Assembly (NCBI GenBank): GCA_965208325.1
Contig: OZ242326.1
Coordinates: 640,001 to 704,000 of the forward strand
DNA length: 64,000 bases
Reading direction: 5' to 3'
Origin: Candidatus Poribacteria bacterium
Lineage (GTDB): Bacteria; Poribacteria; WGA-4E; PCPOR2b
Below, in pieces: positions 24,032-27,857 of the stretch (within the stretch, counting starts at the first letter, position 1; every line of letters starts with the position of its first letter). The translations under genes and the position numbers were made by a program. Below the pieces are notes generated by a model. The model did not search any database. It was not told the origin of the DNA and was given only the letters and a program-made list of their open reading frames with translations.

Positions 24032-25450
24032 TTACTTGGCTATAGACGGAATGCGTTTCCAAATCCCTGTAGCTTGTTCAAAGGCGTGAGCCATTTGCAG
24101 CACGCCGAAGTCATCTTGATGCCGCCCTACAATCTGCACGCCCACTGGCAAGCCTTCCGGTGTGAATCCGCATGGAACTGAGATGGCGGGCAGACCCGTA
24201 ACGGTTACATAGTAGCAAGATTTCATCCAGTCAATGTAGGTCTCCATTTTTACACTGCCAATTTCCGTTACATATCGTTGTGTCACGTCAAAAGGCGGTA
24301 CCTGGTTCACAGGAAGAATTAGAAACTCGTAGGTATCCATGAATTTCCGAACACGGTGAAAAATTTCAGTCTGTTTGAGTTCAGCCCATCCGATTTGCGG
24401 CCCGCTTAACTTCTTCCCCTCTTCGATATTCCAGACGATTGTGTCCTTCAATTGGCCGCGGTGGGTCTTCAGCAAGCCGTTAAATGCAAGTTCAAAGCGC
24501 CACGCCCGCCATATCTTGAAGACTTCATCCGCATCAGTAAAATCGGGTTCACCATCCTCGACTACGCAGCCCAAGTCTTCGAACACGCGCCGCTGGCTAT
24601 TGATGGTGTTTGTTACGCGCGCATCCATCGGCAGCCCCCCCAAATCATGTCCCCAAGCGATGCGCGCACCTGTAAAATCACGTTCGAGAGGACGAGCGAA
24701 TCGACCGCCCGGCTCAGCGATGGCGATAGGCGAACGCGAATCCGGCCCGGCGATAGCGCTCAATACGAGTGCGGCATCTTGGACTGTTCTTGCCATTGGC
24801 CCCTGTACTGTAATTGGAAACCAACCTGTTAAGTTCGGCCATATCGGCACTCTGCCATGGGACGTGCGAAAACCAACGACATTACAGAAGTTGCCGGGAA
24901 TACGCAACGAGCCGCCCATGTCGCTTCCGTCCGCGATTGGCAGCATCCTACACGCTAAGGCCGCTGCTGCACCGCCGCTGCTGCCGCCGCAGGTTTTTGA
25001 GGTGTCGTAGGGGTTCAGCGTTTCTCCGAATACCGCGTTAAAAGTCTGTGCCCCCGCGCCGAATTCGGGTGTATTGGTTTTACCGATGGTGATTGCTCCG
25101 GCTGTCTTCAGCCGCTCTACAATGAGTGCGTCTTCGTCCGGTACAAAATCCTTGTAAATCGGAGATCCGAATGTGGTGCGGATTCCTTGAGTTTCAAACA
25201 AATCTTTGTGCGCTATCGGCAGTCCATGCAAAGCGGCCGTCGATTCACCGCGTGCCAGTGCCTCGTCGGCGGCGGCAGCTTGTTCAATCGCTAGCTCGGG
25301 TAACAAAGTAACTATGGCGTTTACTTTAGGGTTAACACGCTCGATTTGCGCTAAATGGGCTTCCATCACCTCTTTGACCGATACATCTCTTGCCCGAATG
25401 CGTCGGCTCAACTCGGAAGCTGTCATATAGCAAATTTCTTGGTGGGACAT
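24032..25450 (-). CDS. Amidase (amidase signature family)
   Basis: GLPIAHKD, GKTNTPEFG, GGSSGG and GSDMGGSLRIP. Confidence 0.95.
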   Translation of the reverse strand: MSHQEICYMTASELSRRIRARDVSVKEVMEAHLAQIERVNPKVNAIVTLLPELAIEQAAAADEALARGESTAALHGLPIAHKDLFETQGIRTTFGSPIYKDFVPDEDALIVERLKTAGAITIGKTNTPEFGAGAQTFNAVFGETLNPYDTSKTCGGSSGGAAAALACRMLPIADGSDMGGSLRIPGNFCNVVGFRTSHGRVPIWPNLTGWFPITVQGPMARTVQDAALVLSAIAGPDSRSPIAIAEPGGRFARPLERDFTGARIAWGHDLGGLPMDARVTNTINSQRRVFEDLGCVVEDGEPDFTDADEVFKIWRAWRFELAFNGLLKTHRGQLKDTIVWNIEEGKKLSGPQIGWAELKQTEIFHRVRKFMDTYEFLILPVNQVPPFDVTQRYVTEIGSVKMETYIDWMKSCYYVTVTGLPAISVPCGFTPEGLPVGVQIVGRHQDDFGVLQMAHAFEQATGIWKRIPSIAK

Positions 25451-25583
25451 GGCGAATTCATCTCACTCTCACGATTGTTCAATTCACAGAATTCAAGACT
25501 TAAACCTCGCAGCATTGGGTGCGGCAGGTTCGAAACATCCTCAGTAAGCTGCTAGCTGTCCGGCTCAAAATTAGTTCTGCGGT

Positions 25584-25612
25584 AGCTTAACAGAAGGCCA
25601 AATAAGCGTCAA
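25584..25612 (-). promoter_or_regulatory. Putative sigma70 promoter for the amidase
   Basis: Minus strand TTGACG-17 nt-TAAGCT with TG extension. Confidence 0.45.
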
Positions 25613-25682
25613 CACAAATCCCTCCGATCACCGTGACACTGAGCAGATTGTCAATAATACCACTTCGGCCGTTAAAATTGTC

Positions 25683-25711
25683 TTGATATACATTGGGCAT
25701 TGTGATAAAAT
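25683..25711 (+). promoter_or_regulatory. Putative sigma70 promoter of the metG leader
   Basis: TTGATA-17 nt-TAAAAT with extended TGn. Confidence 0.6.
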
Positions 25712-25788
25712 AGCAAGGTTAAGGTAAATCATTAATTTACAGGTTGGTAAATAAGTTAATCACGCAATCTCAATCCGGATTATTCTCA

Positions 25789-25842
25789 ATGAAGCGCTTT
25801 GCCATTCTTTCCAATATGGGCATGTCCATGTGTTCAAGTTAA
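25789..25842 (+). CDS. Putative Met-rich leader peptide MKRFAILSNMGMSMCSS
   Basis: ATG 25789 to TAA 25840-42; ATG codons at 25816, 25822 and 25828; sits within an attenuator-like structure before metG; RBS weak (GGA). Confidence 0.7.
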   Translation: MKRFAILSNMGMSMCSS

Positions 25843-25938
25843 AGTGATAACGGGCGTGCCACAATCAGACTTGGGATTAGCTGTAACATTTTCTTTGTAG
25901 AATCGCCTATTATCACCGCGGTGATAATAGGTTTTTTT
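25819..25938 (+). promoter_or_regulatory. Putative transcription attenuator (1:2 protector, 2:3 antiterminator, 3:4 terminator)
   Basis: GGCATGTCC (25819-27) pairs with GGGCGTGCC (25852-60); GTGATAACGGGCG (25844-56) pairs with CGCCTATTATCAC (25904-16). Confidence 0.75.
25906..25938 (+). terminator. Intrinsic terminator inside the metG leader
   Basis: CCTATTATCAC-CGCG-GTGATAATAGG perfect stem followed by T7, ending 26 nt before the metG ATG. Confidence 0.88.
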
Positions 25939-25964
25939 GTTTCAGTCTAAAGGGACTCAGGTTC

Positions 25965-27857
25965 ATGGGTAAATTCTACATCACAACGCCAATTTACTAC
26001 GTTAATGCGGAGCCGCATGTCGGTCATGCGTACACAAGTATTGCCGCCGATGCGCTAGCACGGTATCATAGCCTCAAAGGGGACGATGTGTTCTTTTTAA
26101 CGGGTGTGGATGAACACGGTGCAAACATTGAAAAAATCGCGGCTGAAAATGGAGTGTCGCCGCAGCAATATTGCGATCAGATAGCGCCGGCCTTCACAAA
26201 TCTCTGGAAGAAGCTAAATATTTCCTACAATATTTTTCTCAGGACGACCAGTGATTTACACAAACGCGGCGTGGCGAAACTCCTCACTAGTCTTCATGAA
26301 TCCGGCGATATATATAAAGACAAGTATGAGGGATATTATTGCCGCCCCTGCGAAAGTTTTTACATGGATAAAGAACTCGGCGAAGCAAAGGCATGTCCGG
26401 TACACCGGTTGCCCGTGGAATGGGTGGAAGAAGAGAACTACTTTTTCGCATTGTCGAAATACGAAAATCGGTTGCTCGATCATATTAACGCCAACCCAGA
26501 ATTTATTCAACCGGACAGCCGGCGTAATGAAATCCTTAGCGCAATCGAGTCAGGATTGAAAGATGTTAGCATTTCAAGAGCATCCGTGTCGTGGGGAATT
26601 CCATTGCCGTTCGATCCTACCCACAATATTTATGTTTGGATTGAGGCATTGTGCAACTATATCACAGCGCTCGATTATCATGAGACCGGCGAAAAATACC
26701 GCAAGTATTGGCCGGCCGATTTACATCTGATGGGGAAAGAGATTACCCGCTTTCACGCTATAATTTGGCCCGCAATGTTAATGTCTGTCGACCTGCCGCT
26801 GCCCAAGCAGGTTTTCGGACACGGGTGGTTGACCAAGGACGGAAAACGGATTAGCAAAACAACAGGTAACATTATTGATATGGATGCGCTGATTGACGAG
26901 TTTGGTTTAGAAGCATTTCGCTACTATATGATGCGTGAATTCAGTTTTGGCAATGACGGCGACTTTCGGCGCGATCGCTTTGTGTTGAGGTATAACGCTG
27001 ATCTGGCAAACGATCTTGGCAACCTGCTCAATCGCACGCTAGGACTTGTCGCAAAGCACTTCGGCGTCGTTCCTGATCCTTCGACGCCCGGCGAATTCGA
27101 CAGCGAAGTCAAACAGGCGGCATGCGAGACAGTAAACGAGGTCTATTCGCTTATGAGCCGGCGCGCGTTTGATGCAGCGTTGGAAGCTATCTGGGAGTTT
27201 GTGCGTCGTGTCAATCGCTATGTTCAGCAGACACAGGTTTGGACGCTGGCGAAATCGGAGGAAGACAAGAGGCGCATGGGAACTATCCTATATAACAGCA
27301 TGGAAGCCCTGAGAACGGTTGCCGTTCTGATTTCACCGTTTATGCCTGACACCGCAAACCGCATCCGCCAGCAGATGGGGCTCGATGAGAGTTTCAACGC
27401 GCAGGGATTAGACACGGTCGCGCAGTGGGGCGGATTACCATCGGACATTCCAATTCGGAAACCTGAGCCAATATTCCCGCGAAAGGATACGAAATCGGTG
27501 CAAAGCATGAATGCAGAAGGAACTGAAGACGCTAACCTTGTTTCGTTCAAAGATTTCCAGTCGTTAGACTTGCGTGTTGCGGAAGTTATTGCTGCCGAAC
27601 GCGTGCCTAATGCGGACCGGCTGCTGAAACTACGCGTCAGTATCGGTGATACAGAGCGGCAAATCGTTGCTGGCATCGCCGAGAATTACACGCCGGAGGA
27701 TTTAATCGGGAAACGGGTGATACTCGTTGCAAACTTAGAACCTGCCACAATCCGAGGGATTAAATCTCAAGGGATGTTGCTCGCGGCCGCCGACGGAAAT
27801 GACCTCGCAGTCGCGACGATTGAAAAGGCGTTGCCGGCGGGAACACGGGTAAGCTAA
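25965..27857 (+). CDS. metG: Methionine--tRNA ligase with C-terminal tRNA-binding (Trbp111-like) domain
   Basis: FYITTPIYYVN..HVGH, TGVDEHG, Zn knuckle (CRPC..CPVH), RISKT (KMSKS-like) and LDLRVA..RQIVAGI. Confidence 0.97.
   Translation: MGKFYITTPIYYVNAEPHVGHAYTSIAADALARYHSLKGDDVFFLTGVDEHGANIEKIAAENGVSPQQYCDQIAPAFTNLWKKLNISYNIFLRTTSDLHKRGVAKLLTSLHESGDIYKDKYEGYYCRPCESFYMDKELGEAKACPVHRLPVEWVEEENYFFALSKYENRLLDHINANPEFIQPDSRRNEILSAIESGLKDVSISRASVSWGIPLPFDPTHNIYVWIEALCNYITALDYHETGEKYRKYWPADLHLMGKEITRFHAIIWPAMLMSVDLPLPKQVFGHGWLTKDGKRISKTTGNIIDMDALIDEFGLEAFRYYMMREFSFGNDGDFRRDRFVLRYNADLANDLGNLLNRTLGLVAKHFGVVPDPSTPGEFDSEVKQAACETVNEVYSLMSRRAFDAALEAIWEFVRRVNRYVQQTQVWTLAKSEEDKRRMGTILYNSMEALRTVAVLISPFMPDTANRIRQQMGLDESFNAQGLDTVAQWGGLPSDIPIRKPEPIFPRKDTKSVQSMNAEGTEDANLVSFKDFQSLDLRVAEVIAAERVPNADRLLKLRVSIGDTERQIVAGIAENYTPEDLIGKRVILVANLEPATIRGIKSQGMLLAAADGNDLAVATIEKALPAGTRVS

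Follow-up and report, generated by a model that had tools for sequence, protein, structure and literature searches.

Background

Control of transcription through the translation of a short leader peptide is classical. The trpL leader of Escherichia coli is a four-segment attenuator (alternative pairings 1:2, 2:3 and 3:4) with tandem Trp codons ahead of a biosynthetic operon, and the pheM leader, with a leader peptide containing cognate codons, alternative hairpins and a terminator, stands ahead of pheST, the matching synthetase gene. Methionine is an odd case for such control, as the same amino acid starts every peptide, and it is hardly documented. In the present study, we examined the leader of metG, the gene for methionyl-tRNA synthetase (MetRS), in a stretch of 64 kb (the window; positions 640,001 to 704,000 of contig OZ242326.1, assembly GCA_965208325.1) from Candidatus Poribacteria, which are represented by metagenome-assembled genomes (MAGs) of sponge-symbiont bacteria. 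From sequence comparison and modelled folding, we consider it probable that this leader is a ribosome-mediated leader-peptide attenuator that couples the transcription of metG to the supply of charged elongator tRNA-Met. Comparison supports this reading through the anatomy of the leader, its conservation, the preservation of its frame and the compatibility of its pairings.

The metG leader resembles the pheM-pheST system in its leader peptide rich in cognate codons, its hairpins and its terminator, and in the feedback that it would exert on the enzyme's own product. It differs in the amino acid (Met here, Phe there) and in the phylum, has an extra long-range helix, and gives no match to a leader family of Rfam at E-values up to 10; in the present genome, moreover, pheS itself sits behind a T-box. 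With trpL it shares the four-segment geometry, the few regulatory codons inside region 1 and a stop codon just ahead of region 2, whereas it controls a synthetase gene, its Met codons alternate while the Trp codons of trpL are in tandem, and the same amino acid serves both initiation and sensing. The T-box (RF00230) of metG and methionine genes in Firmicutes is alike in that uncharged tRNA favours the antiterminator over the terminator, but it binds the tRNA directly and has no reading frame, and its model does not match the metG leader.

In Streptomyces lividans TK24, 'metL', a frame of 29 codons of which two internal ones are Met, lies upstream of metNIQ and has been proposed as a methionine-dependent attenuator; according to the part of that paper which treats it, termination is unclear in the absence of a typical terminator, and neither comparative nor experimental support is given (PMC8079986). 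Like the metG leader, 'metL' is a short leader frame with Met codons, but it controls a transporter. In the literature searched, we found no methionine leader-peptide attenuator for metG or another synthetase gene and no paper joining Poribacteria with an attenuator, and the matched passages of a survey of attenuators contain no methionine case (PMC2965389).

Results and discussion

Anatomy of the metG leader

An earlier note on this DNA, made from the letters alone, had described a promoter (TTGATA, 17 bases, TAAAAT), a short frame with three alternating Met codons, a region 1 and a region 2 with their pairing partners, and a terminator with a run of seven T just before metG. Each of these elements could be read directly from the sequence (Table 1). 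Among three promoter-like sites in 25300-26100 (shuffled sequences gave a mean of 1.7), this promoter was the best, and a scan of the same interval found the terminator as its sole terminator-like site. Region 2 resembles the 3' arm of the terminator, and the 1:2 helix is also present in the centroid fold. The T tail is separated from the ATG of metG by 26 bases, and the upstream neighbour is a divergent amidase gene; thus, every metG transcript must cross the terminator, and there is no space for a second promoter. A -10-like hexamer near 25898, within the leader, was rejected as a promoter, being kept in neither L003 nor L004 (two of the four species of the genus, which are designated L001, the window, to L004). 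A short frame, a cluster of cognate codons, a terminator, an antiterminator that shares an arm with it, and the placement of the codons are thus all found here, as in leader-peptide attenuators.

We infer translation of the frame, stalling of the ribosome, coupling of transcription to translation and a response to methionine, which would proceed as follows. Transcription would begin, likely near 25718, and a ribosome would translate the 17-codon frame. With ample Met-tRNA, the ribosome would reach the stop codon at 25840 and cover region 2; once it had gone, regions 1 and 2 would pair, the long-range helix would close, the 3:4 hairpin would form, and the polymerase would terminate at the T tail. 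With scarce Met-tRNA, a stall at Met codon 10, 12 or 14 would mask region 1, region 2 would pair with region 3 once this had been made, the terminator would be blocked, and metG would be transcribed. As MetRS makes the sensed molecule, the arrangement would be a homeostatic feedback loop.

The Met codons are unusual for this genome. Met makes up 1.93% of the internal codons in its 2744 long open reading frames (ORFs), and the binomial chance of at least three Met in 16 codons is 3.3e-3. Genome-wide, three Met within five codons occur in 90 of 49155 small ORFs; in seven of these 90, a terminator-like hairpin follows, and that of the metG leader is the strongest (-16.6 kcal/mol). The Met cluster together with the hairpin is unlikely to have arisen by chance alone.

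The metG leader within the genus

Among the 30 metG loci that we fetched from 41 related genomes, the leader stands ahead of metG in all four species of the genus and is absent at the other 26 loci. The alignment of the four species shows conservation of both promoter hexamers, the Met-Ser-Met codons, the terminator and regions 2 and 3, and each species retains the leader frame with at least two of its Met codons. There has been turnover of the start codon: ATG 25789 is the sole start in L001 and L002, L003 has this ATG together with one upstream, and L004 has only the upstream one. The upstream ATG of L003 lies 28 bases 5' of the position of ATG 25789 and is in frame; indeed, all the start codons across the four leaders are in frame with the Met codons. 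The position of the stop codon also moves, and it is two codons earlier in L002. Metagenomes added no further members: a scan for the terminator pattern matched no stretch, and a scan with MetRS gave 80 loci, none from this genus and the best 72-76% identical.

Homologous leaders in other Poribacteria

When we searched 176 genomes of the phylum at the DNA level, the terminator part of the leader was matched at a different locus in sister genera, where a homologous promoter-leader unit stands ahead of a gene from the threonine synthase family (410 amino acids; TIGR00260, 282 bits). We refer to these leaders as thrC-type. On reading of the sequences, a homologous promoter precedes them, and a hidden Markov model (HMM) made from ten thrC-type leaders aligned with the metG leaders over almost the full length (E-values of 1.8e-26 for L003, 4.1e-20 for L004, 3.9e-17 for L001 and 7.3e-14 for L002). 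The two kinds share the promoter, the frame, region 2, the long-range helix and the terminator; the thrC-type leaders differ in having a longer frame, a stop codon beyond region 2 and another gene downstream. Relative to them, the metG leaders have a 36-base in-frame deletion.

A covariance model of the core from region 2 to the terminator, built from 23 sequences, matched 35 of 151 genomes of the phylum: all 25 of family f1 as well as the source genome of the window, nine of the ten of family f3, none of the 100 of family f2 and none of the 15 others. Each genome has one copy of the leader, except the four genomes of the window's own genus, which have two each. Because the second copy occurs only in this genus and the leaders are homologous, we regard the metG leader as a genus-specific duplicate of the thrC-type leader. 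By its sequence, the whole promoter-leader unit appears to have been duplicated from the threonine-synthase-family gene, ahead of which it stands in two families of Poribacteria, to metG in this genus.

In the source genome, the thrC-type leader (G000:C1:960380-960632; locus L135, 1227-1500) retains region 2 and the terminator. Among the corresponding leaders of the four species, only that of L138 has an ATG-started frame across the region; that of L137 has an in-frame stop codon, and those of L135 and L136 have no ATG. The original copy in the genus thus seems to be decaying, or to have been re-wired, after the duplication to metG.

For the analyses below, we combined the four metG leaders with 24 thrC-type leaders from family f1 (20 from genus g5 and one each from genera g2, g3, g4 and g6) into a set of 28 homologous leaders from six genera. 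The thrC-type leaders of the window's own genus (n = 4) were analysed separately. Only four of the nine matches in family f3 were fetched, and these were kept apart from the 28. L126 (genus g7), on a short contig, was left out of the leader sets, as only its terminator part aligned.

Two further features of the thrC-type loci were observed. In genus g5, the terminator and the start of the gene are separated by about 100 bases that contain a conserved inverted repeat (e.g. L119, 1545-1647), and this stretch gave no match in Rfam. The f3 leaders (L169-L172), which precede the same thrC-family gene, keep the terminator and have a shorter region 2 and repeated complementary motifs.

Preservation of the frame and of the Met codons

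All 24 thrC-type leaders of family f1 have a frame of about 40-46 codons from a homologous start (23 ATG and one GTG) with four to seven internal Met codons. Although the leaders differ in length, the frame is preserved. The first interval between in-frame landmarks is 57, 45, 48 or 54 bases, 0 mod 3 in all 20 of the 24 leaders in which it was measurable, and the second is 58, 55, 49 or 52 bases, 1 mod 3 in 24 of 24. The spacer between regions 2 and 3, which is non-coding, has lengths of 63, 64, 65, 61, 66 and 56 bases. Together with the in-frame turnover of start codons, these insertions and deletions in multiples of three suggest that the leader frame is translated.

From per-codon counts on the nucleotide alignment, Met is present at codons 22, 24 and 35 in 24 of 24 thrC-type leaders and at codon 27 in 23 of 24. 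These four Met codons are the most conserved codons of the frame, and the residues between them vary across genera. In genus g5, the variable columns number 24, 24 and 27 at the three codon positions. As there is no excess at the third position, the peptide itself does not seem to be under ordinary protein selection, as would be expected of a regulatory leader.

Folding of the nascent leader

In equilibrium folding of the full leader, the terminator always won, with or without ribosome masks; thus, the choice between the two states must be kinetic. The helices concerned have comparable energies (-16.8 kcal/mol for the terminator, -16.9 for 2:3, -17.7 for 1:2 and -10.7 for the long-range helix). 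We therefore modelled the nascent transcript by folding 25718-25917, a stage at which region 3 has been made and region 4 has not, with a ribosome footprint of 30 bases. The probability of the pairing between regions 2 and 3, P(2:3), was used as the metric in place of "region 3 paired with anything", which was too unspecific.

With no ribosome, P(2:3) was 0.05, P(1:2) was 0.92 and the probability of the long-range helix was 0.75; such predicted termination of an untranslated leader is a further likeness to trpL. P(2:3) rose to 0.96-0.99 when Met codon 10, 12 or 14 was in the A site, and was 0.00 when the stop codon was there. This result was unchanged for footprints from 24 to 33 bases. In a scan of all 18 ribosome positions, P(2:3) was at least 0.67 only at codons 7-15, with its peak at codons 10-14. 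The long-range helix had a probability of 0.75-0.79 in the terminating states and of 0.00 with the ribosome at the Met codons. The 1:2, 2:3 and 3:4 geometry of the earlier note is found in the pairing of the sequence, and co-transcriptional folding, which that note had proposed as a check, forms the 2:3 helix only with a ribosome at or near the Met codons.

In the set of 28 leaders, the median P(2:3) was 0.00 with the ribosome at the stop codon (zero in 27 of 28) and 0.85 with the ribosome at the best Met codon, where it was at least 0.5 in 20 of 28. With no ribosome, P(2:3) ranged from 0 to 1, with a median of 0.06. The folding results agree with the conservation of the frame and its Met codons and with the kept pairings, and these together favour the earlier proposal that a stall at the Met codons would free region 2 and antiterminate.

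Conservation of the helices

Terminator pairing was kept in 276 of 276 cells across 23 leaders, and antiterminator pairing in 95.6% of 295 cells; slid controls, which do not remove shared ancestry, gave 26-59% and 31-56%, respectively. Variation affects eight of the 12 terminator pairs, in every case by a change of one base that leaves a G-U pair. The antiterminator contains one compensatory change, a pair that is A-U or, in three of the metG leaders, G-C. RNAalifold on the 28 leaders also predicted a conserved long-range helix between the 5' part of the ancestral frame and the spacer; three sequences have G-C in place of A-U at one pair of this helix. We considered an anticodon-like motif in its 5' strand as a tRNA mimic and rejected it, as the motif is not conserved across the alignment. 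In the relatives, where the earlier note had suggested a check, the small upstream frame and the pairings are kept, but covariation is thin and the Met codons are missing in some related leaders.

Weighing of the explanations

Several observations weigh against reading the metG leader as a methionine-sensing attenuator. Within the genus, only two of the three Met codons are left in L003 and L004. The alignment shows a weaker region 1 pairing in both of these, with three of nine pairs broken in L004, where a 2-base insertion also shifts the stop codon to beyond region 2. No antiterminator forms in the folding model for L004, and P(2:3) is only 0.24 in L002 and 0.45 in L003; in the whole set, there are eight leaders out of 28 in which no Met codon brings P(2:3) to 0.5. 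The ribosome-binding site at ATG 25789 has an energy of -3.3 kcal/mol, equal to the median of random sites (47% of which are as good); for the long ORFs of the genome, the median is -5.6 kcal/mol, and one quarter of them are no better than -2.6. Outside the metG leaders, the thrC-type leaders of the genus (L135-L138) keep the switch core without Met codons, and the f3 leaders (L169-L172, genera g9 and g11) carry a different frame across region 2 that is not Met-rich. The switch core can thus persist without the proposed Met sensor, either as a decaying remnant or under some other input. Conservation of the Met block extends to all three codon positions, which an RNA-level constraint on this CAUG-rich block would fit equally. 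As for the helices, covariation is thin, with no double changes in the terminator, the compensatory pairs in the antiterminator and in the long-range helix are probably a single event each, and the conserved long-range helix is superfluous to the textbook model of an attenuator.

Much of this would suit an RNA-only switch, in which the ligand of the leader is a small molecule, a tRNA or a protein such as MetRS, the frame is incidental, and the CAUG repeats are sensor structure. The conservation of the Met block at all codon positions, the cores without Met codons in the f3 and own-genus thrC-type leaders, and the weak ribosome-binding site all point that way, as do the ability of the CAUG motifs to form hairpins and the position of the conserved long-range helix, which encloses the Met block and region 2. 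The pattern of change speaks against it: the insertions and deletions in the frame are all multiples of three while those in the spacer are not, the turnover of start codons preserves the frame, and the metG leaders, with their 36-base deletion, have lost most of the conserved block and the loop of the CAUG hairpin but kept the Met codons and the frame. No Rfam family matched, the T-box and all SAM classes included, and no conserved anticodon-like loop was seen by eye in the alignment. We give this explanation only a slim chance. An even slimmer one falls to an attenuator that depends on translation and does not read Met, responding instead to general translation capacity or to arrest by the nascent peptide. 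In the thrC-type leaders, conservation of the peptide is high around the Met codons, and the f3 frame spans region 2 without enrichment in Met, as such a device would allow; yet the residues between the Met codons vary across genera while the Met codons stay, and 12 codons of the block are gone from the metG leaders, whose Met codons remain. In the model, moreover, the Met codons lie exactly where a stall would free region 2, and the genes controlled are metG and one with a plausible part in methionine synthesis.

It is most improbable that promoter and terminator belong to an independent small gene or small RNA and that metG is expressed by constitutive leak-through. With about 220 bases between promoter and terminator, a discrete RNA would be released whatever the role of the unit, and in other bacteria, terminated RNAs from attenuators are able to act in trans (PMC6614838). 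This explanation would leave the essential metG with no other promoter in the 26 bases between the T tail and its start; the mimic of the terminator 3' arm in region 2, conserved in pairing, would be useless to an unregulated terminator; and the peptide lacks protein-like constraint. On the balance of these points, we prefer the methionine-sensing leader-peptide attenuator.

Known RNA families and other leaders

The earlier note had seen neither a T-box nor a SAM motif in the leader, and the Rfam scans of leader and window agree. At gathering score, none of the 4227 models of Rfam matched in the 64-kb window, and at E-values up to 10, the interval 25450-26050 gave only chance-level matches to microRNAs and small RNAs and no T-box, SAM or leader family. 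Four thrC-type leaders gave no meaningful match, and the whole genome has no SAM-I riboswitch. The genome has two T-boxes of 103 bits each, upstream of ilvB (acetolactate synthase) and pheS, and none before metG. With T-boxes for pheS and ilvB and a putative leader peptide for metG, one genome would mix both types of control.

Other structures were observed ahead of metG elsewhere in the phylum. In genus g10 of family f4 (L030 and L177), a non-homologous frame with three Met in five codons lies about 100-180 bases upstream of metG and is followed in the two species by a terminator-like hairpin (-14.9 and -20.2 kcal/mol) and a T run. This may be an independent second invention of a Met leader in the same phylum. 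A G+C-rich perfect hairpin without a T tail occurs about 40-60 bases before metG at many g5 loci and the g4 locus (L008, L009, L011, L014, L015, L021, L023 and L024), and could be a repeat element or a further hairpin with a regulatory role.

Table 1. Features of the metG leader and of related loci. Positions are those of the window unless the source genome (G000) is named.
Feature	Position	Strand	Remarks
Sigma-70-type promoter	25683..25711	+	-35 at 25683-88, 17-base spacer, TG, -10 at 25706-11; 10/12 matches
Ancestral start-codon position of leader frame	25761..25763	+	ATC in window and L002; ATG in L003 and L004; ATG/GTG in thrC-type leaders
Long-range helix, 5' strand	25766..25773	+	Pairs with 25871-25878; duplex -10.7 kcal/mol
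Leader frame, 17 codons	25789..25842	+	ATG 25789; stop codon TAA 25840-42
Met codons 10, 12 and 14 of leader frame	25816-18, 25822-24, 25828-30	+	
Region 1 (overlaps Met codons 12 and 14)	25819..25827	+	Anti-antiterminator with 25852-25860; 9/9 pairs (two G-U); -17.7 kcal/mol
Region 2, antiterminator 5' arm	25844..25856	+	12/13 pairs with 25904-16; -16.9 kcal/mol; begins 2 bases past leader stop codon
Long-range helix, 3' strand	25871..25878	+	In spacer between regions 2 and 3
Region 3, arm common to antiterminator and terminator	25904..25916	+	Most invariant stretch of leader
Intrinsic terminator	25905..25938	+	12-pair stem 25905-32, 4-base loop, T7 tail 25932-38; -16.8 kcal/mol
metG, methionyl-tRNA synthetase with C-terminal tRNA-binding domain	25965..27857	+	630 amino acids; Pfam tRNA-synt_1g, E 4e-104
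Amidase gene, divergent upstream neighbour of metG	24032-25450	Opposite to metG	
Plant-type threonine synthase	G000:C1:956736-958070		547 bits to 1E5X (plant chloroplast enzyme); 2.5 kb upstream of leader-controlled paralogue
Leader-controlled threonine synthase paralogue	Source genome, 960633-961868		177 bits to solved threonine synthases (moderate)
T-box leader	G000:C1:4312758-4313013	+	Above Rfam cut-off
T-box leader	G000:C1:4489061-4489327	-	Above Rfam cut-off

The threonine synthase paralogue and methionine synthesis

The source genome has three threonine synthase paralogues, among them a plant-type enzyme and the one behind the thrC-type leader (Table 1). In the same genome, we found no MetX, no MetA and no full-length Cys/Met-PLP enzyme; homoserine kinase ThrB, pieces of a split MetH and a short MetE-like protein are present. 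In Streptomyces, MetM, a homologue of threonine synthase, makes homocysteine from O-phosphohomoserine, as listed in Table 2 of PMC13759103. Given these gaps, the presence of ThrB and a separate plant-type threonine synthase, the leader-controlled paralogue is a candidate MetM and is plausibly a MetM-like homocysteine synthase, a reading drawn from the gaps in the pathway. Its neighbours lend this no support: in G021 and in the source genome, no methionine or sulfur-carrier gene stands next to the thrC-type gene. The plant-type threonine synthase, together with the missing MetX, MetA and Cys/Met-PLP enzymes, suggests that O-phosphohomoserine is the branch point, as in plants.

A wider reading would make the leader a Poribacteria-specific device of a methionine regulon. 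The 1:2 helix and the long-range helix would lock the terminating form when no ribosome initiates, and only a ribosome that had initiated and then stalled would open it. As charged initiator tRNA is required for initiation and a stall occurs only when charged elongator tRNA is lacking, the output would follow the balance of their charging. The leader would also mark the threonine synthase paralogue as MetM-type, and its jump to metG with decay of the original would be a change of target. That all of these statements hold jointly seems rather unlikely to us.

Conclusions

If the preferred reading of the metG leader as a methionine-sensing attenuator is right, what would be new is the amino-acid specificity, the phylum, the added long-range helix and the jump between target genes. 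The case is carried by 28 homologous leaders from six genera, through the signal of a preserved frame and a folding prediction that is specific to the position of the ribosome. The promoter-leader unit appears to have moved as a whole from one gene to another within a genus, and it may offer a regulatory clue to methionine synthesis in uncultivated sponge symbionts.

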